This document shows, one piece after another, positions 15,794-32,993 of a stretch of 64,000 bases of DNA; positions within the stretch are counted from its first letter, which is position 1; each line of letters starts with the position of its first letter. The notes under the pieces are model-generated. The model made no database searches, was not told where the DNA came from, and saw only the letters and a program-made list of their open reading frames with translations. Where the stretch lies: NCBI GenBank assembly GCA_001002325.1, contig LCNZ01000002.1:7093-71092 (forward strand). The letters are read 5' to 3'. Source of the DNA: Candidatus Amesbacteria bacterium GW2011_GWB1_47_19. Its GTDB lineage: Bacteria; Patescibacteriota; Microgenomatia; CAZETR01; Amesbacteraceae. Both the position numbers and the translations under genes were made by a program.

Positions 15794-15805
15794 AAAAAAA
15801 TCGAA

Positions 15806-17290
15806 ATGATAGCTTCAAAATACTTGATGATAACCTGTATCTGCCTAACTATAGTTTATTCTTTTTATTTTCTCAATAAAATTAAGTTGGATAATACGGC
15901 CTACTGGAGCGGGGATACTATAGTTTACCAGTCTATTGCAGTAAATTTAGCCACAGGTCATGGTTATAAATATGGAATCATAGAACCATTCGAGAAATAT
16001 AAGTTTGGAAAAGGTCTCTTCAATCCAAAAGCAGACTTAAAAGAGGAACTTACTGACTGGGGTAAAGAAGGTGGACATGATTATTTTTTTACTACCCCGG
16101 GTTACATTTTATTTCTGGGATCAATTTACAAAATATTCGGTATTAGCCCGTTTATAGCCAAAGTAATACAAAATATCTTCATGATCACCATAGGTTCTTT
16201 TTTACCCTTCATTGGCTATATTTTTTGGAAAAGATCAGGACTCGTAAGTGGGATCATATCCGGTTTTATCTATCTCAATCACTTTTTTAGCCTTGAGGCT
16301 CCAGGCTCGCTTGCTGTTGCTAATGAAATACTCACCGAGCCTTTGATCTCTTTTTATCTTTTCTTAATGATCATTGTGTTTATGTATTGGTCAATCAAAA
16401 AGTCTTTTATAACGACGTTTAGTTTTGGAGTCTTGCTTGGTATCGGTGTACTGGTCAAGGGATCAAATATATTTATTCCCCTTCTGTTCTTAACCTATTT
16501 CTTTATTCTTATTTTTATAAAAAGGAGTTTAAGTTTGGCACATCTTTCTGTATTATTGTCGGGAATTATTATTTCTATTTTGCCATGGTCTATATATGCC
16601 ACCAAATCTTCAGATCAATTAATCTTAATTTCCACCCAAAGCAAACCGGCACTATTTGACGGAAATAATGAATACACAGTTATCGACGGAGCTTGGCACC
16701 CGGAGGGATACATTGACAATCCAAATAGTTTTTATCGGCAACCATGGCTGCAAAAATATCCGGATTTAATAAAGGTTGCCATATTTTATTATTATCATCC
16801 CAGAATATTTTTGCCTGTATTTCTTAAAAAGTTATTTTATGCATACCGATTATTTCCTTTTTTTAAAATTTCATTGACTCTGATAATTAGTTCAATCCTA
16901 ATTAATTATTTCTTGAATAAAAAGTTCAAAATAGTCATGTTGATGATAACTTTGCTTTGTTTGATAAATATATTCATTTTTCCCTATCCGGTAACTGGCA
17001 TGCCATTTATGAGCCAAATCTCTACTAGTGGTTCCTTATTAACCGTTTTACTTACAGTAGCCATGCTATTAGCGTATCGCAAAAAAATTATTCACACCAT
17101 AGACATACCTGCACCTATGATAATAATATTCGTGAATTATTTACTGATTACCCTGATGATTTTCGGTTACCCTAGATATATTCAGGTTATGAATTTTGTA
17201 TTTATTCTTGTATCGGTTAAACTCCTCATGGATTTTATAAAAGAATTCTTTTCTACCTTTTATTCTGTTTTCTTTACATCAGATGGTTAA
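15806..17290 (+). CDS. Polytopic membrane protein, putative ArnT/PMT_2-like GT-C glycosyltransferase
   Basis: N-terminal TM then loop DTIVYQSIAVNLATGHGY (D..Y...A..L..G.GY pattern of PMT_2); many TM helices. Confidence 0.5.
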   Translation: MIASKYLMITCICLTIVYSFYFLNKIKLDNTAYWSGDTIVYQSIAVNLATGHGYKYGIIEPFEKYKFGKGLFNPKADLKEELTDWGKEGGHDYFFTTPGYILFLGSIYKIFGISPFIAKVIQNIFMITIGSFLPFIGYIFWKRSGLVSGIISGFIYLNHFFSLEAPGSLAVANEILTEPLISFYLFLMIIVFMYWSIKKSFITTFSFGVLLGIGVLVKGSNIFIPLLFLTYFFILIFIKRSLSLAHLSVLLSGIIISILPWSIYATKSSDQLILISTQSKPALFDGNNEYTVIDGAWHPEGYIDNPNSFYRQPWLQKYPDLIKVAIFYYYHPRIFLPVFLKKLFYAYRLFPFFKISLTLIISSILINYFLNKKFKIVMLMITLLCLINIFIFPYPVTGMPFMSQISTSGSLLTVLLTVAMLLAYRKKIIHTIDIPAPMIIIFVNYLLITLMIFGYPRYIQVMNFVFILVSVKLLMDFIKEFFSTFYSVFFTSDG

Positions 17291-18587
17291 ACCGAATAAA
17301 GAGCTGAAGAACTGGTACTACCACCGGGATTTAATAAATTATTATGCGTTTAACTTAACACCCCAATGTAGTATTTTAAACATTCACCATGGTAATGATA
17401 TTTTCCGCGATTCATTAAAATATAAGAATTATAAATCAGTTAACATTTCAAAAAAGTCAATATTTCCTGATAAAAAATTTGACTTTATTTTTATTTCTGA
17501 TTCTTTAAGTGTTGTCAGAGATATTCAGTCTTTGTTTCACAAGCTAAAGAAATGTTCTAGTCCCAACACCAGACTCATAGTCAATTATCATAATTATTTC
17601 TGGTTACCCTTTCTGAAAATAGCTGTGAAGCTTGGAATTAAAGACCCGCAAAAATATACGAATTGGTTAAATACTGACGACGTGATTAATTTGCTGTCTA
17701 TTGAGAATTATCAAATCATAAAAGTCGGGCAACGGTTATTGATACCGGTTTATATCCCGGTAATTTCTTATTTCATAAACAGGTATATTGCATATTTTCC
17801 GGTTATTAATAAATTATGTTTTACAAACTACCTTATTTCCCGGCCTGTAAATGATAATAAAATCTATGATCAAACCGTAAGCGTGATCATACCCGTCAGA
17901 AATGAGAGTGGGAATATTGAAAATACTATTAAGCGGCTTCCAAAGCTAGGTAAACACACAGAAATAATCTTTATAGAGGGTTATTCCTCTGACAATACCT
18001 GGGATAAAATTATCCGTGTTCAGAATAAGTACAAGAAATTGGATATAAAAGTCTTTAAACAGCAGGGTATAGGTAAGGCGGATGCTGTTCGACTTGGATT
18101 TATTAAAGCCAGAGGTAATATTCTAATGATTCTTGATGCAGATTTAACCGTACCTCCGGAAGAATTGACCAAATTTTATGAAGCTATTAATAAAGACAAA
18201 GGCGAATTCATTAATGGCTGTCGGTTGGTATATCCGGTGCAAAAAGAAGCAATGCAATTTCTTAACACAGTTGCCAACCACCTCTTCTCCACCATATTAT
18301 CATGGATATTGAATATAAAAATAAAAGATACACTATGTGGTACAAAAGTTATCTCAAAGAAGAACTATCTTCATATTGCCCGTAACCGTAAGTACTTTGG
18401 GGATTTTGATCCGTTCGGTGATTTTGATTTGATATTCGGAGCCGCGAAATTAAATCTGAAATATACTGAAATACCCATTCATTACCAATCACGTAAATAT
18501 GGACATACCAACATCTCCCGCTTCAAACATGGCTGGTTGTTACTGAAGATGACTATATTTGCACTATTCAAGTTAAAATTTGTCTAA
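17283..18587 (+). CDS. Dpm1/GtrB-like GT2 polyprenol-phosphate glycosyltransferase with about 190-aa N-terminal extra domain
   Basis: C-terminal half: VSVIIPVRNESGNI...IIFIEGYSSDNTWD...ILMILDADLTVPPEEL (GT2 DxD). N-terminal domain of unknown function (FDFIFISDSL...NTRLIV). Confidence 0.7.
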   Translation: MVKPNKELKNWYYHRDLINYYAFNLTPQCSILNIHHGNDIFRDSLKYKNYKSVNISKKSIFPDKKFDFIFISDSLSVVRDIQSLFHKLKKCSSPNTRLIVNYHNYFWLPFLKIAVKLGIKDPQKYTNWLNTDDVINLLSIENYQIIKVGQRLLIPVYIPVISYFINRYIAYFPVINKLCFTNYLISRPVNDNKIYDQTVSVIIPVRNESGNIENTIKRLPKLGKHTEIIFIEGYSSDNTWDKIIRVQNKYKKLDIKVFKQQGIGKADAVRLGFIKARGNILMILDADLTVPPEELTKFYEAINKDKGEFINGCRLVYPVQKEAMQFLNTVANHLFSTILSWILNIKIKDTLCGTKVISKKNYLHIARNRKYFGDFDPFGDFDLIFGAAKLNLKYTEIPIHYQSRKYGHTNISRFKHGWLLLKMTIFALFKLKFV

Positions 18588-19120
18588 TGCTGATCAATTT
18601 CTTAAAAAGATATTCATACAAACAAATCCTTCTTCTATTCATAGAAGACCACCTTCAGTTTCTCCTGGGTCCGTTACCGTCGTACGAAGGTATTATTGCC
18701 AGAAGACTCATGTACAAAATATTTCTCAAATTAGGTAAGGGGAGCATTATTTACCACCACGTAATATTCACTCACGGTTTTAATATCAAAATAGGTAATT
18801 ATTTTTCACCAAACTGCGGCACCCATATTGATGGTAGAGGAGGTGTGGAAATTGGCGATTATGTCCTGATCGGACCAAATGTTTTTATTGCTTCATCAAA
18901 CCATGTAGTCCGCACGAGAGAGCCCCGTATAAATTTTCCTCATATTCCCAAACCCACGTATATAGGTTCAAATGTCTGGATTGGGGCCAACACGGTTGTA
19001 TGTCCTGGGGTTAAGATTGGTGACAACAGTATTGTGGCCGCCGGTAGCATAGTAACAAAGGATGTAGCACACAACGTTATTGTTGCTGGAAATCCTGCCA
19101 GGGTAACACGGACTTTTTAG
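18587..19120 (+). CDS. Hexapeptide-repeat (left-handed beta-helix) sugar O-acetyltransferase
   Basis: Repeated [LIV]G..x..[LIV] hexapeptides: IGDYVLIGPNVFI...IGSNVWIGANTVVCPGVKIGDNSIVAAGSIV. Confidence 0.8.
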   Translation: MLINFLKRYSYKQILLLFIEDHLQFLLGPLPSYEGIIARRLMYKIFLKLGKGSIIYHHVIFTHGFNIKIGNYFSPNCGTHIDGRGGVEIGDYVLIGPNVFIASSNHVVRTREPRINFPHIPKPTYIGSNVWIGANTVVCPGVKIGDNSIVAAGSIVTKDVAHNVIVAGNPARVTRTF

Positions 19121-19121
19121 T

Positions 19122-20441
19122 ATGATAAATGGATTCAAAAATATTTTATTAAACAAGACGGATGATCTTCATAAACTGATATTTAGTCAACCCATGGGAA
19201 AAGAAATGACAAGTTTTACCAGGAATCTAACATGGACAGTTTTTGGCCTGGGTACATCCTCAGCTATTATCTTCGCGATTAACCTCCTTGCCGGAAGATT
19301 ATTAGCACCCGTTGAGTACGGAAAATACAATCTGGTTCTCAGTTTGTCACAAATTATTATGGTGTTTTCAGTATTTGGTATAGATATGGCTGCTGTAAAT
19401 TTCATTGCCAAATCAAAGAGTGAAACGGATAAGAAAGTTGTCGTATCAACTTCTCTTATGTTAATAACACTTAACTTAATCATGGTTGTTATCGGGACAA
19501 CTCTGTTTTTGAAACTGACCGATATTGCTGATTATTTTGAAATTAGTATGGTGATTTCGATTTTGATATATACAGCTCTATACTCATTTAGAAATGTTAC
19601 TGACGGAATCATGAGAGGATTACATAAATTTAAAGCTCAGTCGCTCTTGAGAATGGTTGAAGTTGGGGTTACCTTATTAACATTCTATTTAATGTTCTTT
19701 ATTGTCAAAAAATATGTATACACCGCTAATCTATTTGCTACACTCACGGGTGTTTTTGCCCTCGTTATCATCTATATCATCTATATAAAACACTATTTAT
19801 TCAAGTTTGACAGAATAATATTAATAGACTTAATGAAATACGGTGGGTTATTTTTCACTAGTGGAGTCGCCGGGGTCGTCTTTGGTCAATTAGACAAAAT
19901 TATTGTAACCACGAGTCTGGGAATTAGCTCATTTGGTTTGTACAGTGCATATTTCACAGCCTCAGGATTGGTTTCAATCAATTTGGCCGGGGTTGTAATC
20001 AACGTCTTTTTCCCAGCTGTATCAAAAGAGCCTAATAAATTACCGATTTACCATAAGTTAAATAGATTAACTGCTTACACAATCTTACCCTTGTTTATGT
20101 TAATGGTAATAATTGTCAGTGTGGCAATGAAAATATTTGGATCAAAATATCAATTTAATTTGGAATATATTCTGCTTTTCAGTATTTTGTCGGTACTTCA
20201 GTTCTTTTATTCCATCAATAATTCATTAATTACCACAATTTCGAGAAATTTATTTATCAAGTCAATTGTGTTTTCAATCCTGATTAGCACGTTCTATTTA
20301 TGTGGATATCTGATATTTATATGTTTATCTTTAATAACTATCACGACCGTAGTAACTTTAATGATCTCTTATGTCATATGCTTGATGTGGATGCAGCGGA
20401 TTATATTAAGGAATTACTTCGGATCTGGTCTGATAAAATGA
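19122..20441 (+). CDS. Wzx-like oligosaccharide flippase (MOP superfamily polysaccharide biosynthesis protein)
   Basis: About 12-14 TM helices, about 440 aa, typical PST-family organisation; sits within the sugar cluster. Confidence 0.65.
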   Translation: MINGFKNILLNKTDDLHKLIFSQPMGKEMTSFTRNLTWTVFGLGTSSAIIFAINLLAGRLLAPVEYGKYNLVLSLSQIIMVFSVFGIDMAAVNFIAKSKSETDKKVVVSTSLMLITLNLIMVVIGTTLFLKLTDIADYFEISMVISILIYTALYSFRNVTDGIMRGLHKFKAQSLLRMVEVGVTLLTFYLMFFIVKKYVYTANLFATLTGVFALVIIYIIYIKHYLFKFDRIILIDLMKYGGLFFTSGVAGVVFGQLDKIIVTTSLGISSFGLYSAYFTASGLVSINLAGVVINVFFPAVSKEPNKLPIYHKLNRLTAYTILPLFMLMVIIVSVAMKIFGSKYQFNLEYILLFSILSVLQFFYSINNSLITTISRNLFIKSIVFSILISTFYLCGYLIFICLSLITITTVVTLMISYVICLMWMQRIILRNYFGSGLIK

Positions 20442-20489
20442 CATCTTCTTAATATATAATGCAGCGTTAAAGAGAGCTTAATCAAAAAA

Positions 20490-21320
20490 ATGAAATTGTC
20501 ACCCGAAGCTAAAACAGTAGTTGAATTAGTTAGAGAATGTGGATTGATTGCCCGACAACAAAGATTGGGGGATTTATCAGTGGAGGATGTGGCTGGTAAA
20601 GGTTTGATCTCAAAGGGGGATCTAAAAGTAGATGGATGGATAAAACATAGAGTTGGTTCGCTATTCCCCGGCTACGTTACTCTTTCTGAAGAATCAGAAA
20701 ATGAATTATCTTTTTCACAGTTACAGATGGAAAACGTAATCGTAGCTGACCCCATCGATGGAACGAGGTGGTACAAAGACGGTGGAAACTTATGGACGAT
20801 TTCCCTGGCATTAGTTGTCCACGGAGTTATTAATATCGGTGTAATCCATCAACCCGACACAAACACTCTTTGGTTGGCCGAAAAAGGCCAAGGTGCCTAT
20901 AGAAAGCGCAACGGGAAACGACCCGAACCAATTAAAACTCTAAATGAGACAAAACTTTCTAGAGTGAAAATTGGGGTTGGGAGTAATATGTCAACTGTTG
21001 AAACCAGACGAACGATGTTAGGATTGTTAAATTACCTAATAGAAGACAGTCGTGGGCCATATATTATGGCAAGTACAGCATTGGAATTAGCTCTGGTCGC
21101 CTCAGGTATCGTATTGGCCGGAGATATCCATCCCCAGGCTAAACCCTGGGACAAAGCTGCTGGCATGCTTATAATTGAAGAAGCGGGTGGTGCGGTTGGT
21201 GGATGGCCGGGCAGGGAAACAGTATTCGAAAATGGTTTAGTTGCCGCCGCTAACTTAATGTTATATAATCAGCTCGTTGAATTAGTAAAAGCGGCAGAAT
21301 GTTATGACAAAGGAAAATAA
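20490..21320 (+). CDS. Inositol monophosphatase-family phosphatase
   Basis: VADPIDGTRWY (DPIDGT) and WDKAAGMLIIEEAGG motifs of the IMPase/FBPase/CysQ fold. Confidence 0.75.
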   Translation: MKLSPEAKTVVELVRECGLIARQQRLGDLSVEDVAGKGLISKGDLKVDGWIKHRVGSLFPGYVTLSEESENELSFSQLQMENVIVADPIDGTRWYKDGGNLWTISLALVVHGVINIGVIHQPDTNTLWLAEKGQGAYRKRNGKRPEPIKTLNETKLSRVKIGVGSNMSTVETRRTMLGLLNYLIEDSRGPYIMASTALELALVASGIVLAGDIHPQAKPWDKAAGMLIIEEAGGAVGGWPGRETVFENGLVAAANLMLYNQLVELVKAAECYDKGK

Positions 21321-21519
21321 ATCATTTGAAAGAAAATTAATGGATAGGTTTGACTTTGAAATCGATGGTGGATCTACTTTGATAATTCCCGATGACACAA
21401 GTTTCGTAGGTTTGATGTTTGCACGAATAATTGCAAATAGATTTATGGTAGATTTTGTTGAAAAAAAGAACGGAACAAGGCTGAGTTTTAATGGTTGGAA
21501 AATATGGCACAGGGGATAA
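21304..21519 (+). CDS. Small hypothetical protein (71 aa)
   Basis: Fills the gap between flanking genes with short overlaps; no recognisable motif. Confidence 0.3.
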   Translation: MTKENKSFERKLMDRFDFEIDGGSTLIIPDDTSFVGLMFARIIANRFMVDFVEKKNGTRLSFNGWKIWHRG

Positions 21520-22112
21520 ATAAATCTCCTGCTTTTATTATTGATAGGGATGGGGTTATTAACCGAATGGTGAATTATTCGGGTCAGTGGGATTCACCCC
21601 AAAAACCCAAAGATGTCCGGTTGGTCGATGGTATAGTAGACATTTTGCACTGGTTAAATGAGAGACATATTCCGATAATCGAAATTTCCAACCAGCCTGG
21701 GATAGCCAAGGGTAAAATGACACAAGAAACCTCAGACGCAATTGAAAACAGGGTCCACCAGCTGTTGGCATCCCGGGGTGTCAGAATTGATAAAACATAC
21801 ATTTGCCCCCATCATCCCAAGGGTGTAGTGCCGGAATTGACACGTGAGTGCGATTGCCGTAAACCCAAAGCGGGCTTATTTATTAAAGCGGCTAAAGATT
21901 TAGGTATAAACTTCTCAGAAAGTGTAATGCTTGGCGATAAAGCCTCTGATATTCAAGCGGGAGATGCTGTGGGCTGTAAAACCGTACTGTATCTTCACAA
22001 TGAAGACCAACCGGAAAAAATCGAACAGACCAAAAGGGCCCGTGCTGACCATCAAGTCACCCGAGTTCAAGAAGTACTTGAAATATTACCTAAAATTTTT
22101 AAATTAGTTTAA
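21495..22112 (+). CDS. gmhB: HAD-IIIA D,D-heptose 1,7-bisphosphate phosphatase (GmhB-like)
   Basis: FIIDRDGVINR, CPHHP...CDCRKPKAGLF, MLGDKASDIQAG: the GmhB/HisB-N signature including the Zn-binding Cys/His cluster. Confidence 0.8.
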   Translation: MENMAQGINKSPAFIIDRDGVINRMVNYSGQWDSPQKPKDVRLVDGIVDILHWLNERHIPIIEISNQPGIAKGKMTQETSDAIENRVHQLLASRGVRIDKTYICPHHPKGVVPELTRECDCRKPKAGLFIKAAKDLGINFSESVMLGDKASDIQAGDAVGCKTVLYLHNEDQPEKIEQTKRARADHQVTRVQEVLEILPKIFKLV

Positions 22113-22851
22113 AACTCCTATCTTTCTTCGCATCAAGGTAAGCTTGATCGAATTGGTTAAGTGTCTCAGTCAGCCTCTTTGACTCCAGCGATTTCTGCAA
22201 TACTTCAGATGTAACGGTTACAATATGAGCCCCTAATGAAAAGGCGATTCTAATTTGTTCTGAAGACCTGACGCTTCCAATAATCACTCTAACATTATTC
22301 AAATTTTGGTTTCTAATATAATTTAATAGAGAAATCAATGTCTCTTGTGCTCCAGGACCTTCCTGATATTTAGACTTGCTTTCTTCAGATCTTCCCCAGA
22401 ATAAGCTTATATATTGAGCACCTGCTTCTGCAGCTAGAGCCAGCTGGGCGAAGCTAATACCAACCGTGGCGTTAACTGTAATTCCTTTTTTAATCATGTT
22501 TCGGATCATCCCAAAACTCCTTCCATCGGGTAATATGGGGATTTTAATAACTGCATTGCTAGGATATTTTGCATGGTATTTGTCAGCCAGCGAGTACATA
22601 TCGGAATCAGACATTTTGGAATAGGGAATCTCGACAGATACCGGGAAGTTATCACCCACCAGAAAGCATATTTTATGAAGATGCTCTGGAATATTAACCA
22701 CGCCATCTTTCTGAAGTATCATAGGATTTGTGGTAATTCCTTTGATTACGGAACTCCATTTTTTTATCTCCTCTAGCTTACTAGAATCAAGAAAAAAACC
22801 TGAAATTCCGGAAAGCCGGTTACTTTTTTCCATTCGCTTTTCCATTATCAA
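22099..22851 (-). CDS. Transaldolase / fructose-6-phosphate aldolase family (TalC/FSA type)
   Basis: FFLDSSKLEEIKKWSSVIKGITTNPMIL aligns with YLDTSDV...GVTTNPSI of FSA/short transaldolases; about 220-aa TIM-barrel size. Start may be an internal Met (22845 or 22833). Confidence 0.75.
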   Translation of the reverse strand: MIMEKRMEKSNRLSGISGFFLDSSKLEEIKKWSSVIKGITTNPMILQKDGVVNIPEHLHKICFLVGDNFPVSVEIPYSKMSDSDMYSLADKYHAKYPSNAVIKIPILPDGRSFGMIRNMIKKGITVNATVGISFAQLALAAEAGAQYISLFWGRSEESKSKYQEGPGAQETLISLLNYIRNQNLNNVRVIIGSVRSSEQIRIAFSLGAHIVTVTSEVLQKSLESKRLTETLNQFDQAYLDAKKDRSFKLI

Positions 22852-23461
22852 AATCCTTAATCATCTGTCGTAATGTAAATATTATTCCATGTGTGAGTAC
22901 GACATGAAATGCTTCTATAGCCGGTGTGCCGTAGACTTCATTTATGACTGGAACTACCAGGCAGACATTAGCCATTTGTTTCATAGCTCCTCCATCAAAT
23001 CCGGAAAATCCCAGGATTTTTGCACCTCGCGATTTTGCTAATTTCATTGCTGCTACCATATTCTGAGACCAGGGACCGGCATCTCCCATACCACTTCCTC
23101 CGTGTACCGAGAATCCCACTAAAACATCGTTCTTTGCCAACCAAGGTTCCAGTTGTTCGGCAAAAACTGTTCCCCAACCGCTATCATTCGTCCAGGCGCT
23201 AACCAATGGAATATTATCTACCAGCGACATGGCCTTGAACCGTTTCTTGTGAGGGATGATTGTGGTTTTTGCTAAATCAGATGCAAAATGGGTAGCTGTC
23301 GATGCGGAACCACCGCACCCCATCACAAATATTGTTCCGGAATTCTTCCAAGTCTCAAATAGAATATCTATTGCTTTATCCAATTCTTTTCCGCTTCCCA
23401 AAAATGTTGCGGACTTGATGATTTCAAAAAAATATTCTTTAAAAGTGAATTGTTGATTCAT
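22820..23461 (-). CDS. gmhA: SIS-domain D-sedoheptulose 7-phosphate isomerase (GmhA)
   Basis: IFVMGCGGSASTATHFASDL...VLVGFSVHGGSG...ILGFSGFDGGAMKQMANVCLVVP...IEAFHVVLTH: GmhA-specific pattern. Confidence 0.8.
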   Translation of the reverse strand: MNQQFTFKEYFFEIIKSATFLGSGKELDKAIDILFETWKNSGTIFVMGCGGSASTATHFASDLAKTTIIPHKKRFKAMSLVDNIPLVSAWTNDSGWGTVFAEQLEPWLAKNDVLVGFSVHGGSGMGDAGPWSQNMVAAMKLAKSRGAKILGFSGFDGGAMKQMANVCLVVPVINEVYGTPAIEAFHVVLTHGIIFTLRQMIKDFDNGKANGKK

Positions 23462-23481
23462 AAAGAAGTATCCCTATAATA

Positions 23482-24492
23482 TCACACCCTTTTAACATTC
23501 TCAGTTCTTTCAACTTGCCTGTAAATGTTTTCAATTATTTTCATCGTTTCCAATCCGTCAGATCCGGTTCCCAACAATTTTTCTTTCCCTGAAATAGCAT
23601 TCTTAAAATTAATCCACTCTCTTTTCCACGAAGGATCAGGTTCGGAAAACTTCCAAACCCGTTCCTTTGGAGCCATACCGGGTGTTCTGAGACCTAATAC
23701 CAGGGTCTCAGTACCATAAGACCCACCCAAGCCGTTTACTTTTAAATAAGCTTCCGTTCCATAGACTTCGAAAATAAATCTATTTTTCCATTCTGTCCAA
23801 CTTGCATGGAGTTCGGCAATACCGTTTTCTCCCCTAAGCAATAAAAAGGCATTGTCTTCGACTCGCACCGGCCAATATGAAGTCGTCAATTCTGCCTTAA
23901 TTGATGAAAACGTTCCCATAAACCACAATACCAAGTCAATTAGATGTGATCCCTGGTCTATTAATTCTCCGCCACCGGATAACATTGGATTCATCCGCCA
24001 CTCTTTTTCATATCCTGGCCTCCCCCCGATACCGTATGTAGATTTTATATACATTATATTGCCGATCTTACCTTTCACAAAAATCTTATAAGCTTTAAAT
24101 ATCGCCGGATGAAATCGGTGGTTATAGCCAGTTTTGTAAATCAAACCTCTTTTTCTTGCCTCATTCACACAATTCGTTATTTCTTTGACATTCAACCCTA
24201 AAGGTTTTTCGCATAGCACATGTTTTCCGGATATTAAAGCAGATTTGGAAATTTCTGCCAAACGGTTATGAGTAGTAGAAACTATAACTGCATTAATATG
24301 TAGATCAGAGACAACATCTTGCCAATTGTCTGAATATTTACAATTGTTCAATCTATTGGACAAGGATTCGGCTTTGGATATGTCAGTATCAGCCACCCGG
24401 AATACAGTATCCCTTCCCAGCAGCTTTATAACTTCAGCTCTTTTTGTTCCAATTATACCTGCCCCGATAATACCAATTTTCATTATATTCAA
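23482..24492 (-). CDS. Gfo/Idh/MocA-family NAD(P)-dependent sugar oxidoreductase
   Basis: MKIGIIGAGIIGTKRA Rossmann N-terminus; EKPLGLNVKE motif; C-terminal alpha/beta domain. Confidence 0.75.
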   Translation of the reverse strand: MNIMKIGIIGAGIIGTKRAEVIKLLGRDTVFRVADTDISKAESLSNRLNNCKYSDNWQDVVSDLHINAVIVSTTHNRLAEISKSALISGKHVLCEKPLGLNVKEITNCVNEARKRGLIYKTGYNHRFHPAIFKAYKIFVKGKIGNIMYIKSTYGIGGRPGYEKEWRMNPMLSGGGELIDQGSHLIDLVLWFMGTFSSIKAELTTSYWPVRVEDNAFLLLRGENGIAELHASWTEWKNRFIFEVYGTEAYLKVNGLGGSYGTETLVLGLRTPGMAPKERVWKFSEPDPSWKREWINFKNAISGKEKLLGTGSDGLETMKIIENIYRQVERTENVKRV

Positions 24493-25475
24493 AAATTTAC
24501 TAAGGTTTTGACCCCTTCATTATCAAAATGTATCAGCATTTCTGTTAAACCGGCCTTTGACATGGATTTTCTTAATTTTGATTTATCTCCTGGACAACAA
24601 AATAATAAAAATCCTCCCCCCCCCGCTCCGATTATCTTACCCCCGAGAGCACCGGCATCTTTTGCCTGTTCGTACCAATTATCTATTTTCACACTGCTTA
24701 TCGCCTTTGATAATTTTCTTTTATATTGCCAATGTACATCCAACAATTTTCCGAATTGCTCTATTTTGCCATTTTCCAAAGCTTTAAAAATTTCATCACC
24801 TAATTCTTTTATAAAATGCAGATTATTTATTACCTGAGAATCATTTTTAGTAGTAGATCGATTTTGTTTGGAAAGAATCTTCCCGCTGGCCCGGCTGATT
24901 CCGGTAAAAAAAAGTACAAAACTATTTTCTAGATCTCTTAAAGCGTGGGGAGACACGTCAGGTTTAATAACCTCCACCTGCCCTTTTTTATTAATTTCCA
25001 TCCTGGTCAATCCGCCAAAAGCAGCCATATACTGATCCTGTTTTCCCACCGGTTTTTTTAGAATCTCAATTTCAATTTTGCATGCATCTTCAGCCAATCG
25101 TCTGGAACTTACTACTTCCCCCTTTAAATCATAAAGAGCTTTCAAAGTAGATACCAGGAAACTTCCCGATGAACCCATTCCAGTGCCATGAGGTAGATCA
25201 GCCACCCATGCCAATTCAACATTTTTGGTCACGCCCGTCAATTTCAAAGCTTCCTTAGCCAAGTCATGATTTACCTCGTTAACAGAGTCAACGGTTTCCG
25301 AATCGGAATATTTTAACCGGATTAATTTATCACTTACCGGTCGATTGGCAGTAGTATAAATATACTTATTGATGGATACTGATATTAATCTACCCCCGAA
25401 TTTTGTGTAGTAAGAAGGAAGATCGGTACCCCCACCTCCGAGGGGTATTCTGAATGGAGCGCGTACCATAATCAT
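24489..25475 (-). CDS. hddA: GHMP kinase, D-glycero-alpha-D-manno-heptose 7-phosphate kinase (HddA-like)
   Basis: RAPFRIPLGGGGTDLPSY and PHGTGMGSSGSFLV (GHMP motif II); the context with GmhA/GmhB/HddC supports heptose kinase. Confidence 0.75.
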   Translation of the reverse strand: MIMVRAPFRIPLGGGGTDLPSYYTKFGGRLISVSINKYIYTTANRPVSDKLIRLKYSDSETVDSVNEVNHDLAKEALKLTGVTKNVELAWVADLPHGTGMGSSGSFLVSTLKALYDLKGEVVSSRRLAEDACKIEIEILKKPVGKQDQYMAAFGGLTRMEINKKGQVEVIKPDVSPHALRDLENSFVLFFTGISRASGKILSKQNRSTTKNDSQVINNLHFIKELGDEIFKALENGKIEQFGKLLDVHWQYKRKLSKAISSVKIDNWYEQAKDAGALGGKIIGAGGGGFLLFCCPGDKSKLRKSMSKAGLTEMLIHFDNEGVKTLVNF

Positions 25476-26185
25476 AAATTCTTTCTCCTGATGTGTTCAC
25501 TGGTCTTTAACAGGGAATCAAATGTTCCCATATCTGACCAATAGTCATTTTTCTTCAACAATATTAACTGTCCAATTTTAAGATATTCATTATTTAGATC
25601 CGTTATTTCTAATTCTCCCCGGGTTGACGGTCTAATTTTATCTATCATATCAAATACCCGGTTATCATAAAAATGTGGCCCCGTCACTACCAGGTTAGAA
25701 TTAGCCTTTTGCGCTTTTTCTTCAATCGATATTAATTTACCCCGACTGTCATATTTCGGAATTGCAAAACGATTGAATTCGGATGTTTTCCGTAAAAAAG
25801 ACATGGCGCCTGTGGCGAAAGCAGACACTTCGGATTTAAAATCATTTTCGTAATAATTATCACCCGCACAAACCATTATTGATTGATTTTGTGTAAATTT
25901 TCGGCATCTCAAAATAGCGTCGGACATTCCTGCTGGTGTCGGTTGTTCAACGTAGGTCAGCCGGACATCCCATTTCGCCGGTATATGATTCATCAACATT
26001 CTTATCTGGTTTCCGTGTGGTGGACCGCTAATAACCGCAATATCTTTTATTCCGGAGGAAAATATTGTGTGCAAGGGATAAAAAAACATCGGCAGGTTCC
26101 AAACCAGTAAAGCGTGTTTATTTACAGCCTTCGTAACTGGATTCAATCTGGTGCCTGTTCCCCCGGTCAGAACAATACCTTTCAT
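25472..26185 (-). CDS. hddC: Sugar-1-phosphate nucleotidyltransferase (HddC-like GDP-heptose pyrophosphorylase)
   Basis: MKGIVLTGGTGTRLNPVT (G-x-G-T-R-L) N-terminal signature of RmlA/GlmU-type NTP transferases; about 237 aa. Confidence 0.75.
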   Translation of the reverse strand: MKGIVLTGGTGTRLNPVTKAVNKHALLVWNLPMFFYPLHTIFSSGIKDIAVISGPPHGNQIRMLMNHIPAKWDVRLTYVEQPTPAGMSDAILRCRKFTQNQSIMVCAGDNYYENDFKSEVSAFATGAMSFLRKTSEFNRFAIPKYDSRGKLISIEEKAQKANSNLVVTGPHFYDNRVFDMIDKIRPSTRGELEITDLNNEYLKIGQLILLKKNDYWSDMGTFDSLLKTSEHIRRKNL

Positions 26186-26187
26186 TT

Positions 26188-27309
26188 CTAGATATTTTTG
26201 ACTTTTCTGATAACTTTTTGTCGAATCATATTTTTCATTGCTTCATTTGAAACATCCTCTATCCTGCCTTGGGTAAGTAACCAATCCCGATATGCCGCCA
26301 GTGATTTTTCCAGACTAACCTTTGGAATCCAACCCAATTTATTTAATCGGGATATATCAGATACCGTAGAGCGGGTATCACCAACACGAAATATTCCTGG
26401 AATTTGTGGTTCAAGCTTGCTATTAAATACTTTTAACATAGTCCGGGCAAACTCAATAGCGCTATATGCTTTACCGCCACCTACGAAGAATATCTCATTA
26501 TTTGCTCTGGGATCTTCAAGCACAATCAAATTAGCCCGGGCGACGTCAGCACAATTAACATAATCCCTTAATCCCATTCCGTCTTCAACCAATATTGGAG
26601 GTTTATTATTAAGAATTCTCATAGCAAACACTCTTAAGATTCCGGAATAGGCGTTGTAGATTGAATTGCGTGGTCCCTGAACATAAGTATATCTCAAACA
26701 TACCGTGGGTATTAAATATTTTTTTCCTAATGTTTGAGCTAATAACTCAACTGCATACTTGGATATACCATATGTCGTAATAGGCCGACATATATCTTCG
26801 GTCATTAGTACATTTTTGCATTCCCGCTTACATGTCGGACATCTAATTTCCCATTGCCCCGTTTCCAATTGTTCAATCGGTCTGGGTTCAGCCCAGAATT
26901 CTCCATGATTTTTACAATTCCATTTTCCGTCTCCCGCCACTGCTTGCGAGGAGGCAAAAACAATCTTTTTTATTGGTAACCTATTAGCTAATATAAGCTC
27001 AAACATTAGAGCCGTGCTTTCGGTATTTGTGTGGATAAAATGGCCAAAATCTGGCATGTAATCCTGATATGCCGCCATATGAAAAACGGCATCGACACCC
27101 CTCAAACTTCGGTATAAATCTTTGGGGCTACTGACATCACCGAGAATAAATTCAGCTTCTGGGGGGATATAACCGGGCTTGCCTTTAGGATGAACTCTTC
27201 TTTGCAGAGAATCCAGAATTCTTACCTTATACCCTTTCGATATCAGCAAGTCGACAGTATGAGATCCGATAAAACCTGCGCCTCCGGTAACTAAAACATG
27301 CTTATACAC
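26188..27309 (-). CDS. NAD-dependent epimerase/dehydratase (extended SDR) with an inserted Cys-rich zinc-ribbon-like segment
   Basis: VLVTGGAGFIGSH; YGISK (YxxxK). Insert KWNCKNHGEFW...IRCPTCKRECK (C-x2-H ... C-x2-C-x3-C). The track ORF extends to 27447, but the N-terminal 46 aa look non-SDR; GTG at 27309 giving MYKHVLVTGGAG is preferred. Start uncertain. Confidence 0.7.
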   Translation of the reverse strand: MYKHVLVTGGAGFIGSHTVDLLISKGYKVRILDSLQRRVHPKGKPGYIPPEAEFILGDVSSPKDLYRSLRGVDAVFHMAAYQDYMPDFGHFIHTNTESTALMFELILANRLPIKKIVFASSQAVAGDGKWNCKNHGEFWAEPRPIEQLETGQWEIRCPTCKRECKNVLMTEDICRPITTYGISKYAVELLAQTLGKKYLIPTVCLRYTYVQGPRNSIYNAYSGILRVFAMRILNNKPPILVEDGMGLRDYVNCADVARANLIVLEDPRANNEIFFVGGGKAYSAIEFARTMLKVFNSKLEPQIPGIFRVGDTRSTVSDISRLNKLGWIPKVSLEKSLAAYRDWLLTQGRIEDVSNEAMKNMIRQKVIRKVKNI

Positions 27310-27336
27310 AGCGCATATTATATAATAATTTTCCGG

Positions 27337-28182
27337 ATGAAAAAAAAGATCGCTATCGTCACTGGTGGTGCGAGAGGTATAGGGGCAGCCATAGCTCAGA
27401 GGATTGCCGGAGAAAATTACCACGTGGTCATATGTTCCAGATCTCAACAGGAAATTGATGATTTTATTAAGACTATGTCCCGATTGAAGTTACAATTATC
27501 CGGATTAGTAACTGACATCTCGAAATTTGGCCAATGTCAGAGATTATTTAACTTTATTCAGGGATTAAATGGAGAACTGGAAATATTGGTTAACAATGCC
27601 GGGATTTACGGACCTATAGGTAAGCTGGAAGAAAATTCGTATTTGGAATGGGAAGATACTATCAGGATTAATTTGCTCGGTACAGTTTACTGTACTCAAC
27701 TGGCAATTCCCATTATGCAGAAAAGAAAATCGGGGAAAATCATCAACATCTGCGGTGGGGGAGTGGGAGGAAAGGATCCTCTGGCTCGATTTTCAGCTTA
27801 TTATACATCCAAAACCGCCATAGCAGGATTTACTGAGGTAACAGCGGCTGAATTGGCCGAATACAATATTCAGGTTAATTGTATCGCTCCGGGTGCTGTA
27901 AATAGTCGTTTTACAGTCTACTTAATTTCTCAGGGGCGAAACAAAGCCGGAGATGAAATGTACACCAAAGCCATAAAGCAAAAAAAGACTGGAGGAGATT
28001 CTCCGGAATTAGCGGCAAGACTTGTATCATTTTTAATTTCAAATAAAGCAAACCATATCTCAGGCTGCTTACTAAGTGCTAAATGGGATAAGAAGGGGGA
28101 ACTGTCGGACTCTCGCACTTTCACTCCAAATCTATACAAATTAAGAAGAATTGACAACCGGAACTTCTGGGATCATGAATAA
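27337..28182 (+). CDS. Classical SDR oxidoreductase
   Basis: MKKKIAIVTGGARGIGAAIA; NNAG; YYTSK (YxxxK). ATG at 27337 is preceded by TATAAT at 27319-27324; the track ORF starts earlier (27298). Confidence 0.75.
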   Translation: MKKKIAIVTGGARGIGAAIAQRIAGENYHVVICSRSQQEIDDFIKTMSRLKLQLSGLVTDISKFGQCQRLFNFIQGLNGELEILVNNAGIYGPIGKLEENSYLEWEDTIRINLLGTVYCTQLAIPIMQKRKSGKIINICGGGVGGKDPLARFSAYYTSKTAIAGFTEVTAAELAEYNIQVNCIAPGAVNSRFTVYLISQGRNKAGDEMYTKAIKQKKTGGDSPELAARLVSFLISNKANHISGCLLSAKWDKKGELSDSRTFTPNLYKLRRIDNRNFWDHE

Positions 28183-28195
28183 ACATAATGAGGAT

Positions 28196-29476
28196 ATGGA
28201 GATCGGAATTTTAGGACTTTGGCACCTGGGATGTGTTTACTCTACGGGACTGGCAAAATATGGTTATAAAGTTACGGGGTTCGATACAGATCAGCAAATT
28301 GTAGCCAGGCTCAATAAATCAACCCCACCGGTTTTTGAGCCCAATTTGGTTGAAGAAATTAATAATCATTTAAACAAAAACCTTACCTTCACCAGTGATC
28401 CAATTAAAGCCATAAAGCATAAAAAATATGTTTTCATCACTTTGGATGTTCCGGTAGATAATCATGACAAGTTAATAATTCGACCATTAAATAACCTAAT
28501 CAGATTAGTATTGCTCCATTGTTCTCCTGGTACCGCCGTTGTGGTTTCCAGCCAAGTCCCGGTGGGAACCATGCGAAATTTACATCAAAAACTTATGCAA
28601 AAAAACGGTTCCCTTGGTATATGCTTTCCTGAAAATGTTAGGTTGGGTCAGGCTTTTAAGACATTTCTAAAACCCGATAGGATTGTACTGGGAATCGACG
28701 CAAAATCTTCATTGATTAATTTCAAGAAAGATTTTCCCATATTTAATTGCCCGGCTCTGGATATGAGTTTTGAATCAGCTGAAATGGTAAAACACACTTT
28801 AAATTCTTATTTAGCAGTGATGATCAGCTTTGCCAGCGAAGTATGTGATATTTGCGAATTGATCGGTGCGGATTATTCAAAAGTTCTTTCCGCCCTCAGG
28901 TCGGATTCCCGTGTTAGTCCGTCAGCTCCTTTAAACCCCGGCATCGGTTTTGCCGGAGGCACTATTGGCAGGGATATTCAGGTCTTGAAAAGCATCACGG
29001 CCAAGCTGGATTATTCACCCAAATTAATCAAAACTGCATATCAGGTTAATCAGGATAGACTGGATAAGTTGATAAACAAGACACAATTCTTATTAGGAAA
29101 TATTAAAGGTAAAAATATCGGCCTTTTAGGTCTGACTTACAAACCGGGTACTGACACTCTTCGGCGGTCAAAATCTCTTGAACTTGCGCATAGGCTGATC
29201 AGCAAGGGCGCAGCGGTTAGGGGATACGATCCGGCTATCAAACCGGCAGTAAAATTACCGGTAAAAATTGATGTAGCCGAAAACTTAGCGTCATTTTTCA
29301 ATCAGCTGGACCTGGCGATCACTATGACCCCATGGCTGGAATTTAAAAATATAACTGCAGATGATCTCAAACCTATGAAAAAATATTTGGTGTTGGACGC
29401 CCTAAATATTCTCAGTCCGGACTTGAAAAAACAACTACCCTCTTTAAAATACCTTCGTACCGGAGTAAGTCAATAA
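28196..29476 (+). CDS. Nucleotide-sugar dehydrogenase (UDP-glucose 6-dehydrogenase / UDP-ManNAc dehydrogenase family)
   Basis: MEIGILGLWHLGCVYSTGLA N-terminal Rossmann; central catalytic domain; C-terminal GLTYKPGTDTLRRSKSLEL UDP-binding motif. Start trimmed to the ATG after the upstream stop. Confidence 0.75.
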   Translation: MEIGILGLWHLGCVYSTGLAKYGYKVTGFDTDQQIVARLNKSTPPVFEPNLVEEINNHLNKNLTFTSDPIKAIKHKKYVFITLDVPVDNHDKLIIRPLNNLIRLVLLHCSPGTAVVVSSQVPVGTMRNLHQKLMQKNGSLGICFPENVRLGQAFKTFLKPDRIVLGIDAKSSLINFKKDFPIFNCPALDMSFESAEMVKHTLNSYLAVMISFASEVCDICELIGADYSKVLSALRSDSRVSPSAPLNPGIGFAGGTIGRDIQVLKSITAKLDYSPKLIKTAYQVNQDRLDKLINKTQFLLGNIKGKNIGLLGLTYKPGTDTLRRSKSLELAHRLISKGAAVRGYDPAIKPAVKLPVKIDVAENLASFFNQLDLAITMTPWLEFKNITADDLKPMKKYLVLDALNILSPDLKKQLPSLKYLRTGVSQ

Positions 29477-29481
29477 TTCAA

Positions 29482-30198
29482 TTATTTATCTGATGAATAG
29501 TGATCCCGGGTAAAATTCAAATTGGCTAAATTTCCAGTGTCGTACCATTTCTTAAGTTCGATAGCTTTGAATTTAATTCCCTTATTCACCATTAATTGCA
29601 TTGCTGCACAATCATTTAGCGACGAGTCGTTTGGATTTGCATTATACAATTTTCCCAAAGCGGACCAAAAATCCTTATAATCCTTTAGACCTACTAGTCC
29701 GATGTGAAATAAGTCCCATTCCGATGCCCCCTTGCGATTCATTTGCTTCATATATCCGTCTTTAATGGTAAAAGAACTCAAGTATTTAGTGTTAAATAAC
29801 TCGGGATCCAATCCTTTCGACCCCCCGTTCCAGTTGAATTTTTCCGGTGAAGGAAGGGAACCTTTTATTATCGTGTCGTTGCAGTGGAATATAAAAGGGC
29901 ATTGGAGTTTGTCTTTTGCCCTGAGCATTGAGTAACCTAAACTACTTCCGTCTCCCTGGTATTTATCTACCCATACAAACGTAAATTTCCTTCCCGGATA
30001 GGCTTTTATTAAATAGTCCCTGATCTTATATCCAAAATACCCCAGAGTGATTACAGATTCAATATCTGGAGAATATAGGTCGACTATATAATTTATTACG
30101 GGTCGCTTATTTAATAGAACCAACGATTTGTTGGTTTTGGCTGTCAATTCACCCAATCTGGATCCGGTGCCGGAAGTGGTAATTAATATTTTATACAT
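29482..30198 (-). CDS. Stand-alone nucleotidyltransferase (paralog of the N-terminal domain of 34355-35923)
   Basis: MYKILITTSGTGSRLGELT...LGYFGYKIRDYL...FVWVDKYQGDGSSLGYS...LQCPFIFHCNDTII is colinear with MKYKVLITTSGTGFRMGSL...LGYYGQYVKDFL...FIWVDKYTGRGSSLVYS...LQCPFIYHAGDTLV. Confidence 0.7.
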   Translation of the reverse strand: MYKILITTSGTGSRLGELTAKTNKSLVLLNKRPVINYIVDLYSPDIESVITLGYFGYKIRDYLIKAYPGRKFTFVWVDKYQGDGSSLGYSMLRAKDKLQCPFIFHCNDTIIKGSLPSPEKFNWNGGSKGLDPELFNTKYLSSFTIKDGYMKQMNRKGASEWDLFHIGLVGLKDYKDFWSALGKLYNANPNDSSLNDCAAMQLMVNKGIKFKAIELKKWYDTGNLANLNFTRDHYSSDK

Positions 30199-30332
30199 AA
30201 CAACATAACCTTTATTAGTTTAACACCTGCTCTTAAAGTTGAAGAGGTGATACTGGAAAGGTCTGTCAAAATTATATAAGAGATGCTAATAACAAACCAG
30301 CATTTTACAGACGTCAGCTTGAATCTTATAGC

Positions 30333-30566
30333 ATGACCATAACACAGATTACTGGAGTCGGATCGAATGTTGTCCAGGCAGCTTATGAATTAACGACAAG
30401 ATATTATTCCCAGGGATTAAGAGGTTATGAGCTTTTAGGCACAGTAAAAAGTAATATATTACGTCAACAGATAAAACGTCGCGGTAATCACAATTTAGAC
30501 CCTGACACAAATGATGTTATCCGACAGATTTTTGACGAGGTTTTAGATCAGGCACGGGGTAAATAA
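30333..30566 (+). CDS. Small hypothetical protein (77 aa)
   Basis: Isolated ORF preceded by a 134-bp AT-rich intergenic region; no recognisable motif. Confidence 0.35.
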   Translation: MTITQITGVGSNVVQAAYELTTRYYSQGLRGYELLGTVKSNILRQQIKRRGNHNLDPDTNDVIRQIFDEVLDQARGK

Positions 30567-30574
30567 TTTTGTCT

Positions 30575-31258
30575 TTATATTCGATTCAAAAAATTCCAGG
30601 TGTTTTCGGCATTTACAGACCCGACCGTCATTTGTAAAGGTTTAAAGCGCAAGGCAGGACGAATTCCGCTCATTTTGTAATATTGGGTCATATTACTCTC
30701 GTCTGGTAATTTTGTAAGTCTGGCAACAGAAATATGCAGAATATTAGTCAAGGGCAAGGGAGAGAATCCTTCTCGTATACCATCACTAGATACGGTTTCC
30801 CTAGCACTTAATATCACTTGCGGAATATTTGTGGCCGCTATAACAGTATTCCCGCCTTTATCCACGAACATATAGTCAAAACTAAGGGTTAACCCTGGAA
30901 GACGCCTTATATTGTTTTCACCCAAAATTATTTTTCTCATCTTCTCTTCCTTCTCGGGTATTACTGCATCCTCCCTTTTTATCTCAAGCACGGTTGAGTG
31001 TAATGGGAAGTCTATACCAGCCATAAACAATTCTGCCCCCGTTGACTCTGCCACCTTTTGCAAAGGTTCAGTAATCCGCTTTAAAAACTCCTGCTGAGAA
31101 CTCTCATCAAAAGTAAGAGTGATACCAAATCTTTTTCTCAACTCTTCTTCTGGAAAAGATTTAAATTCCACAAACTCGCCCTGCAATGCACCCTGGTAGC
31201 CGAGTCTTGCATTTCCAATATATTTTACAATTGTCGGTAATCTAGTAATTGTTTCCAT
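30575..31258 (-). CDS. 2H-phosphoesterase-superfamily protein (LigT/cyclic phosphodiesterase-like)
   Basis: Two H-x-[TS]-x motifs about 90 aa apart: FPLHSTVL and ILHISVAR. The track start is a TTG at 31294; internal ATG (METITRL) at 31258 is preferred. Confidence 0.5.
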   Translation of the reverse strand: METITRLPTIVKYIGNARLGYQGALQGEFVEFKSFPEEELRKRFGITLTFDESSQQEFLKRITEPLQKVAESTGAELFMAGIDFPLHSTVLEIKREDAVIPEKEEKMRKIILGENNIRRLPGLTLSFDYMFVDKGGNTVIAATNIPQVILSARETVSSDGIREGFSPLPLTNILHISVARLTKLPDESNMTQYYKMSGIRPALRFKPLQMTVGSVNAENTWNFLNRI

Positions 31259-31265
31259 CGGCCGT

Positions 31266-31294
31266 ATTGTACTAAGCAATTTAATAAAATGCAA
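31266..31294 (-). promoter_or_regulatory. Sigma70-like promoter candidate TTGCAT-17-TACAAT (minus strand) for the 2H-phosphoesterase gene
   Basis: The -35 abuts the repeat copy; the -10 lies only about 7 nt from the ATG, so the transcript would be near-leaderless. Confidence 0.35.
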
Positions 31295-31363: not shown

Positions 31364-31444
31364 AAGTGGATAGGGATACAGTTCACCTTTGAACCCTTGG
31401 GATAATGTGCTACCCCTTAGGTTTAATTGGCATGATTTTTTTAG

Positions 31445-31726: not shown

Positions 31727-31738
31727 ATTACTAAATGG

Positions 31739-32992: not shown

Positions 32993-32993
32993 A

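Follow-up and report, generated by a model that had tools for sequence, protein, structure and literature searches.

A transaldolase-linked gene cassette of Candidatus Amesbacteria that probably makes a nucleotide-activated octose for surface glycans

Gene content and layout of the cassette

In a stretch of 64,000 nucleotides from Candidatus Amesbacteria bacterium GW2011_GWB1_47_19 (contig LCNZ01000002.1 of assembly GCA_001002325.1, positions 7,093 to 71,092), which is called the window below, we studied a cassette of nine sugar-metabolism genes. It spans positions 21504–29476 and probably directs the synthesis of an activated eight-carbon sugar, following the logic by which the amino-octose of lincomycin is built. 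The cassette is situated in an island (approximately 12000–52000) that is rich in glycan genes and has a GC content of 0.33–0.40 against 0.46–0.49 in the flanks. An earlier note on the same DNA described at this place five contiguous genes, interpreted as the complete enzyme set for GDP-D-glycero-alpha-D-manno-heptose with an adjacent transaldolase supplying its precursor. All five open reading frames (ORFs) were found where that note had placed them, and their products belong to the Pfam families named there (HAD, TAL_FSA, SIS, GHMP and NTP_transferase). Clustering of these genes was thus confirmed, but strict contiguity was not, because the gene of a Gfo/Idh/MocA oxidoreductase (GFO) sits between those of the isomerase and the kinase. 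Nor is the unit limited to five genes: besides GFO, three more members, a GalE-like SDR, a short-chain reductase and a dehydrogenase homologue, had been overlooked.

Six genes of the minus strand, in the order SDR, nucleotidyltransferase, GHMP kinase, GFO, SIS isomerase and transaldolase, follow each other head to tail as one operon-like unit. Three of their five junctions are overlaps (nucleotidyltransferase/kinase, kinase/GFO and isomerase/transaldolase), and at the remaining two the genes are separated by 2 and 20 nucleotides. The HAD phosphatase is encoded by the opposite strand, convergently with the transaldolase, and overlaps the 3′ end of the latter by 14 nucleotides. The short-chain reductase and the dehydrogenase homologue (27337–29476) are transcribed divergently from the minus-strand run. 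Alignments with orthologs favored the shorter starts at 21504 for the phosphatase, 22845 for the transaldolase, 27309 for the SDR, 27337 for the reductase and 28196 for the dehydrogenase homologue. For the phosphatase, for instance, the longest ORF opens with TTG at 21495, and it is the ATG at 21504 that agrees with the orthologs; for the SDR the same agreement is provided by GTG at 27309. Scanning for promoters and terminators gave no enrichment over shuffled sequences, and no tRNA genes were found in the scan for them.

Table 1. Genes of the cassette and two neighboring genes (positions in the window)
Predicted product	Positions	Strand	Domain evidence
HAD-IIIA sugar-bisphosphate phosphatase, GmhB/LmbK-like	21504–22112	+	Pfam Hydrolase_like/HAD_2
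Transaldolase, short (TalC-size)	22099–22845	−	PF00923, 103 bits
LmbN-type SIS isomerase	22820–23461	−	Pfam SIS
Gfo/Idh/MocA oxidoreductase (GFO), LmbZ-like	23482–24492	−	Pfam GFO_IDH_MocA, N and C domains
GHMP anomeric sugar-phosphate kinase, HddA/LmbP-like	24489–25475	−	Pfam GHMP_kinases, N and C
Sugar-1-phosphate nucleotidyltransferase, RmlA-type core	25472–26185	−	Pfam NTP_transferase
GalE-like extended SDR, LmbM-like role	26188–27309	−	Pfam Epimerase, two stretches
Classical short-chain ketoreductase, FabG/DHRS4-like	27337–28182	+	adh_short, 173 bits
UDP-glucose/GDP-mannose dehydrogenase-family protein without catalytic Cys, LmbL-like	28196–29476	+	All three UDPG_MGDP_dh domains
Methyltransferase-GT2 fusion	17283–18587	+	Pfam GT2, weak methyltransferase match
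Inositol-monophosphatase/FBPase-family phosphatase beside the HAD gene, accessory	20490–21320	+	PF00459, 126 bits

An independent assembly of the same organism (locus L019; ENA ERZ28564383, scaffold_411, sample label ANAN16-1_SAMN03203000) is 99.97–99.99% identical to positions 13899–33461 of the window. Gene calls for the transaldolase and the phosphatase are broken in it, and a biological disruption of these genes was rejected, since the breaks correspond to runs of N in the scaffold. As to the island as a whole, its ~40 kb house, together with the cassette, most sugar-modification genes of the window; it may be the result of horizontal acquisition or represent a hypervariable glycan locus.

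Conservation of the cassette and kinship of its proteins

At least 11 other independent loci (loci are designated here by L with a number, and single proteins by P) carry this gene set again, with proteins diverging down to 22–40% identity and a shuffled gene order. Such a grouping lies far outside what chance would give. Homologues of the transaldolase, with identity down to 35%, were registered in this set in L001/L005, L003, L004, L006, L009, L011/L012, L013 and L014. The genes form two tiers. The core tier includes isomerase, transaldolase and kinase, usually with nucleotidyltransferase and phosphatase, and the tailoring tier, composed of GFO, dehydrogenase homologue and short-chain reductase, is present as a whole in the window, L001, L003, L011/L012, L016 and L018. 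In L001 an HD-domain ORF (10736–11452) stands in place of the HAD phosphatase. Natural fusions were also found, namely HAD-SIS in L014 (6850–7962), SIS-HAD in P0254 and SIS-TAL in P0260. Among named taxa, the proteins of the cassette have their nearest relatives in candidate division WWE3, Woesebacteria and Blackburnbacteria of the Candidate Phyla Radiation (CPR), in Chloroflexota and in a metagenome-assembled genome of Desulfobacteraceae.

Kinship of the isomerase connects this cassette with biosynthesis of lincosamides. The amino sugar of the latter is made in the lmb and ccb pathways by transaldolase LmbR, C8 isomerase LmbN, kinase LmbP, GmhB-like phosphatase LmbK, guanylyltransferase LmbO, GalE-like epimerase LmbM, nucleotide-sugar dehydrogenase homologue LmbL, oxidoreductase LmbZ and aminotransferase LmbS (PMC4351081). 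LmbR produces D-glycero-D-altro-octulose-8-phosphate from ribose-5-phosphate and either fructose-6-phosphate (F6P) or sedoheptulose-7-phosphate (S7P) (PMC5854111), while LmbM, LmbL, CcbZ and CcbS turn GDP-octose into GDP-lincosamide (PMC12945683). The window isomerase, taken in the earlier note for GmhA, is not a canonical GmhA and belongs to the LmbN clade: it is 46% identical to the isomerase domain of LmbN (168 bits) and only 25% identical to GmhA of E. coli, with which LmbN itself shares 31%. In an exhaustive HMMER search with the profile of window-type isomerases, protein P0261, whose 90% cluster includes LmbN of S. lincolnensis and whose N-terminus VSTLDEVL agrees with published lmbN primers, took rank 21 among 1.84 billion representatives (206 bits). 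The phosphate loop SV[HG]GG followed by an insertion of 6–9 residues and SxN, as well as the motif TPxxE before the catalytic histidines, occur in LmbN, in two lmb-like homologues and in all isomerases linked to a transaldolase. E. coli GmhA and a second SIS protein of the window (51038–51643) have a plain SxSGN-SxN loop without the insertion or TPxxE. Relative to E. coli GmhA the loop insertion of the window isomerase counts 9 residues, Glu65 is changed to Asp and Gln172 to Glu. In the neighbor-joining tree LmbN nests within the clade of transaldolase-linked isomerases. The second, GmhA-like SIS protein with its canonical SxSGN loop scored 96 bits against a cut-off of 209; its gene adjoins neither a transaldolase nor a kinase and overlaps an LegB/ArnA-like SDR encoded by the opposite strand (region 51038–52704).

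A TAL_FSA gene adjoins that of the LmbN-type isomerase in all 11 contexts examined (8/8 seeded with the transaldolase and 3/3 seeded with the isomerase). In the isomerase-seeded contexts L016, L017 and L018, where the isomerases are 62–74% identical to that of the window, it is located directly downstream. The transaldolases of L016 (10687–11415) and L018 (10605–11345) represent another lineage, being only 27–30% identical to the window protein. The transaldolase partner is exchanged here non-orthologously with its pairing to the isomerase retained. According to studies of TalB and FSA, Glu and Phe are markers of transaldolases, while fructose-6-phosphate aldolases (FSA) have Gln and Tyr. The window protein stayed below threshold on all NCBIfam TAL/FSA models and keeps the catalytic residues of transaldolases: Schiff-base Lys103, Glu74, Phe151, Arg154, Ser193 and Arg195. 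It thus carries marker residues predictive of a transaldolase rather than of FSA. In L016 and L018 Glu is replaced by Gln, as in FSA, and Phe is kept, so that these enzymes may differ in donor use. The outgroup locus L015, with a housekeeping-type transaldolase of similar identity, lacks cassette neighbors. When transaldolase and isomerase were used as queries against plasmids and phages, only housekeeping or cyanophage genes were returned, and a narrow transaldolase alignment led to no more than two relevant species genomes.

Scanning of metagenomes with P0261 revealed locus L022 (contig OEIL01000945.1, 5374–13333; GC content 0.64), where genes are arranged in the order transaldolase, DegT aminotransferase, nucleotidyltransferase, GHMP kinase, GFO, SIS isomerase, SDR, dehydrogenase homologue and HAD phosphatase, that is lmbR-S-O-P-Z-N-M-L-K. 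The dehydrogenase encoded there shares 90% identity with a protein of Brachybacterium, and the gene content of this locus points to putative production of a lincosamine-like amino-octose outside Streptomyces. Over its full length the window GFO is 38% identical to the LmbZ-position protein of L022 (216 bits), which is as close to it as GFOs of other glycan cassettes are. Solved structures gave not more than 87 bits with GFO, and its orthologs in L001 and L003 are 61–62% identical. The dehydrogenase homologue groups with LmbL-position proteins of L022 and L025, sharing with them the motif AG[AG]T[IL]xRD. It has GFAGGTIGRD where UDP-glucose dehydrogenases have GGSCFPKD, i.e. the catalytic Cys is changed to Thr and Lys to Arg. 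Both changes were found in every copy of the cassette, in the LmbL-position proteins of L022 and L025 (AGATLQRD) and in their Streptomyces relatives; the name LmbL is carried by none of ten clusters of Streptomyces homologues of the L022 dehydrogenase. Without the catalytic thiol, canonical four-electron oxidation to uronic acid is not expected, and a single alcohol oxidation, as needed for dehydration of the side chain, is a possible function of this protein.

Two other proteins may participate in tailoring. For the SDR the top NCBIfam model is GalE (103 bits) and the match in PDB is UDP-glucose 4-epimerase 4zrm (124 bits). It is the most conserved protein of the cassette (71–78% identity in L001, L003 and L018), only 26% identical to the LmbM-position protein of L022. 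A Cys-rich insertion of ~40 residues (approximately 130–175, CKNH...CPTCKREC), which looks like a small zinc-binding module, divides its Epimerase match in two. The orthologs from L001, L016 and L018 have matching lengths (374–379 residues) and the same split of the Epimerase match; the LmbM-position SDRs of L011 and L022 (315–319 residues) appear to be devoid of it. The short-chain reductase matches DHRS4 and FabG in PDB with 107–136 bits. Its orthologs (39–56% identity) are present in seven loci (L001, L003, L004, L011, L016 and L018; also called in L012), accompanied there by GFO and the Cys-less dehydrogenase homologue, except for L004, which is without the latter. Neither the cassette nor the ORFs scanned in the window include a DegT-family aminotransferase of LmbS type, and the product should therefore not be lincosamine.

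The full enzyme set for GDP-heptose, announced in the earlier note, was not confirmed when NCBIfam profiles were scored against their curated cut-offs: matches to GmhA, HddA, GmhB and HddC all remained far below them. With the GmhA model TIGR00441 the window isomerase gained 88 bits against a cut-off of 209, and with other GmhA models 47–67 bits against 265–320. LmbN, which is an octose enzyme, scores 84–90 bits on GmhA models, and therefore such scores do not tell a heptose enzyme from an octose one. The sub-threshold pattern of the window proteins with GmhA, GmhB, HddA and HddC is reproduced as a whole by LmbN together with the proteins of L022. The kinase, called HddA-like in the earlier note, does group with HddA-type kinases and has HddA as its top model, but with 151 bits against a cut-off of 600. 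Among solved structures it comes closest to the heptose kinases 3k85, 4usk and 4n3o (113–147 bits), identity to the LmbP-position protein of L022 is 29%, and a GHMP gene is present in all full-length related loci. The phosphatase does belong to the HAD-IIIA family, exceeding the cut-off of the histidinol-ppas domain (122 bits against 84) and staying below those of the GmhB models (126/178, 111/150 and 96/250, score/cut-off). Its top match in PDB is GmhB (102 bits), and the LmbK-position protein of L022, 31% identical to it, gives a similar pattern of profiles; orthologs from L003, L006 and L017 are 55–65% identical.

With the HddC model, whose cut-off is 300, the nucleotidyltransferase gained 41 bits and cannot be called HddC-like. 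It scores 198 bits with RmlA model TIGR01207 and 172 bits with RmlA in PDB, and is 38% identical to residues 5–240 of the 293 in E. coli RfbA, the C-terminal ~53 residues being missing. Alignment with its L022 counterpart is partial (24% identity). The type of this enzyme varies between cassettes: it is RmlA-like in the window and L001, and ManC-, MurU/HddC- or GlmU-like elsewhere. Thus, from the two groupings that the earlier note named as fatal for its own interpretation one was registered, as the nucleotidyltransferase falls with RmlA, while the kinase stays with HddA-type kinases. The assignment of GDP as the activating nucleotide is unsupported.

Proposed octose route and competing explanations

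Based on these data one can assume that the cassette probably makes a nucleotide-activated octose, which in turn is probably 8-deoxygenated, for a glycan of the cell surface. The substrates, the nucleotide and the final structure in the following scheme are those that we infer by analogy with lincomycin. The LmbR-like transaldolase would transfer a dihydroxyacetone unit from F6P or S7P onto ribose-5-phosphate, and the resulting octulose-8-phosphate would be converted by the LmbN-type isomerase to octose-8-phosphate. Phosphorylation of the latter at C1 by the GHMP kinase, removal of the 8-phosphate (the terminal phosphate of a sugar 1,omega-bisphosphate) by the HAD-IIIA phosphatase and the action of the RmlA-type nucleotidyltransferase would then yield NDP-octose. 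Epimerization and 6,8-dehydration of the side chain would fall to three enzymes acting as LmbM, LmbL and LmbZ do, namely the SDR of GalE type, the dehydrogenase homologue without Cys, and GFO, with the dehydrogenase homologue performing two-electron oxidation of a side-chain hydroxyl. Since the aminotransferase is missing, the keto group of the intermediate, which LmbS would transaminate in lincomycin biosynthesis, would be reduced by the FabG-like reductase. The expected product is NDP-8-deoxy-octose, a deamino analogue of lincosamine, which would be handed to nearby glycosyltransferases.

The parallel with the lmb pathway extends to enzyme families for eight of nine steps, i.e. for all but LmbS. 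Among the single proteins, the isomerase shows specific kinship to LmbN, while GFO and the Cys-less dehydrogenase have their matches in the LmbZ and LmbL positions of the lmb-collinear locus; the kinase-GFO-isomerase order is common to both, and lengths of the window proteins are near those of Ccb proteins. The differences are also clear. The window has a FabG-like reductase and no LmbS-type aminotransferase; its nucleotidyltransferase is of RmlA type, hence a nucleotide other than GDP may be used; transaldolase, kinase, phosphatase and SDR, the latter with its Cys-rich insertion, are not specific orthologs of the lmb enzymes. The setting is formed by glycosyltransferases, flippases and GT-C enzymes rather than by an antibiotic cluster, and instead of Streptomyces the hosts are low-GC bacteria that have not been cultivated.

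Several observations weigh against the octose route. Comparisons with LmbZ, LmbL and LmbR were made with lmb-collinear homologues from the Brachybacterium-like contig of L022, which are not authentic Lmb proteins, and E. coli GmhA was the sole authenticated GmhA aligned, so that the contrast in the phosphate loop is one with the E. coli enzyme. The LmbN-type clade could also include S7P isomerases. Identity between the transaldolases of the window and L022 is only 21% (43 bits), i.e. there is no specific orthology, and in small-genome bacteria the transaldolase of the cluster might be the only one of the cell, doubling as a housekeeping enzyme. The kinase scores 151 bits on HddA compared to 71 bits for the kinase of L022. 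For this kinase, the phosphatase and the SDR alike, kinship to the counterparts in L022 is no closer than to enzymes of heptose pathways or to GalE, and the RmlA-type nucleotidyltransferase is unlike the transferase of that locus.

Alternatively, the product may be NDP-D-glycero-D-manno-heptose or a modified heptose. The transaldolase in this case would boost S7P from F6P and erythrose-4-phosphate, the SIS protein would be a divergent GmhA and the redox enzymes would tailor the heptose. The top named models (GmhA, HddA and GmhB) and heptose-pathway enzymes as nearest solved structures, including those of the kinase and the phosphatase, are in line with this possibility, as is the kinase, which is nearer to HddA than the lmb-type kinase is. 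Transaldolase and GmhA both act on S7P, which makes their adjacency compatible with it, and many carriers of the cassette have CPR-type or otherwise reduced genomes, where a dedicated S7P supply could matter. Four reaction types with their superfamilies are also common to the cassette and the GDP-D-glycero-alpha-D-manno-heptose pathway of Aneurinibacillus thermoaerophilus, Campylobacter jejuni and Burkholderia pseudomallei. Nevertheless, we consider a heptose product less probable. None of the four window proteins reaches its cut-off, the nucleotidyltransferase is not HddC-like, and the isomerase, closer to LmbN than to GmhA, has a phosphate loop remodeled in the manner of LmbN, while a GmhA-like protein with the canonical loop is encoded separately in the window with no transaldolase gene beside it. 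A contig labeled Desulfobacteraceae also carries the cassette. The transaldolase, being an obligatory partner in the cassette, is not mentioned in the literature that we found on heptose clusters. Supply of S7P, the role assigned to it in the earlier note, is possible but has no precedent, whereas LmbR does provide one, makes octulose-8-phosphate and fits other genes of the cassette. Heptose tailoring relies on GDP-mannose-dehydratase-like SDRs and cupin epimerases, and the set of GFO, Cys-less dehydrogenase and reductase has no counterpart there; for the pair of GFO and Cys-less dehydrogenase a role is known only on the side chain of an octose. According to our own reasoning, 6,8-dehydration requires a three-carbon side chain, and therefore this trio would have no obvious job on a heptose. 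What stands from the original proposal is the outline of a surface NDP-sugar route, with transaldolase, GmhA-like isomerase, GHMP kinase, GmhB-like phosphatase and nucleotidyltransferase, not the heptose specifics.

Another acceptor, such as arabinose-5-phosphate or hexose-6-phosphate, or another donor would lead to an octose of different configuration or to a nonose. Polyphyly of the transaldolase partner, with its FSA-like Gln in L016 and L018, and variation of the nucleotidyltransferase type between cassette versions leave some room for such a product, and the ribulose-phosphate 3-epimerase and 6-phospho-3-hexuloisomerase of the island could supply unusual sugar phosphates. However, these two enzymes are encoded in another module, which has a transferase of its own, and their genes are not conserved with the cassette; no particular substrate has positive evidence in its favor, and the nearest characterized relative of the isomerase acts on D-glycero-D-altro-octulose-8-phosphate, which makes this variant improbable. 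Chance co-localization, when a housekeeping transaldolase of the pentose-phosphate pathway and an RmlA-like enzyme of an unrelated dTDP-hexose pathway happen to be neighbors, is very hard to believe. The nucleotidyltransferase does keep RmlA residues aligned with RfbA, and the island has a likely housekeeping ribulose-phosphate 3-epimerase, but the pairing of isomerase and transaldolase is preserved in every context across distant taxa and even as SIS-TAL fusions, reading frames overlap within one operon, and Pfam and NCBIfam scans found no RmlB, RmlC or RmlD genes beside the nucleotidyltransferase.

Branched octoses, for instance yersiniose and the octose of paulomycin, are eight-carbon sugars of bacterial surfaces or natural products as well; they arise by addition of a two-carbon branch to NDP-6-deoxyhexose (PMC4753412). 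They are, unlike the sugar proposed here, not straight chains obtained from a transaldolase product, and a gene for branching chemistry is absent from the cassette. Our literature searches found no account of this cassette, nor of a straight-chain octose in bacterial glycans, leaving aside ulosonic acids (Kdo) and branched octoses (yersiniose). To our knowledge, a transaldolase-built octose route has been described so far only for lincosamide antibiotics.

Wider meaning and neighboring glycan genes

Extending the octose route to the other carriers, one may suggest that straight-chain aldo-octoses, here probably an 8-deoxy sugar of deamino-lincosamine type, serve many uncultivated bacteria as regular units of their envelope glycans and arise from a cassette that starts with a transaldolase and that databases present as heptose genes. 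The sugar pathway by which actinomycetes make lincosamides would then have branched off from this cassette of primary metabolism. In our estimate arguments for and against this generalization are evenly balanced. If it is true, an eight-carbon aldose is to be added to the monomers of bacterial surface glycans, and thousands of “sedoheptulose-7-phosphate isomerase” labels in metagenomic data are wrong. It would also hint at the origin of the lincomycin sugar pathway and offer a compact cassette for the enzymology of deoxy-octoses, with the Cys-less homologue of UDP-glucose dehydrogenase, its GFO partner and the ketoreductase.

Two genes adjacent to the cassette deserve attention. Orthologs of the methyltransferase-GT2 fusion (42–52% identity) are located directly beside the SIS gene in L001, L003, L006 and L016, and this protein is a candidate transferase of the cassette’s sugar. 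The gene of the inositol-monophosphatase family has a 45–46% identical ortholog beside the HAD gene in L006 and is absent from other loci.

The second unusual sugar-phosphate module of the island (32075–37320) encodes a phosphatase of the inositol-monophosphatase family (minus strand), 6-phospho-3-hexuloisomerase (TIGR03127, 178 bits against a cut-off of 160), ribulose-phosphate/allulose-6-phosphate 3-epimerase (TIGR01163, 215 bits against 212.6), a 522-residue protein in which a nucleotidyltransferase and an APH-like kinase are fused, an FkbM methyltransferase and a HAD phosphatase resembling KdsC. This module may activate a rare ketohexose or alditol phosphate.

Five tandem paralogous GT-C glycosyltransferases (PMT_2/ArnT-like, ~540 residues) occupy positions 450–8570, and at least three further copies are scattered at 14312–15793, 52522–53700 and 61333–62832. 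Pairs of GT2 and DUF2304 genes are present as well (50284–50958/49946–50290). Taken together, these sets suggest that sugars linked to polyprenyl phosphate are used extensively for extracytoplasmic glycosylation. In L001, L003 and L016 the cassette is flanked by glycosyltransferases in the same arrangement. A NUDIX hydrolase gene (8557–8991) lies in the midst of the glycosyltransferase genes. The island itself encodes an AsnB-type glutamine amidotransferase (45335–47218), and a gene of this type also adjoins the cassette in L017.

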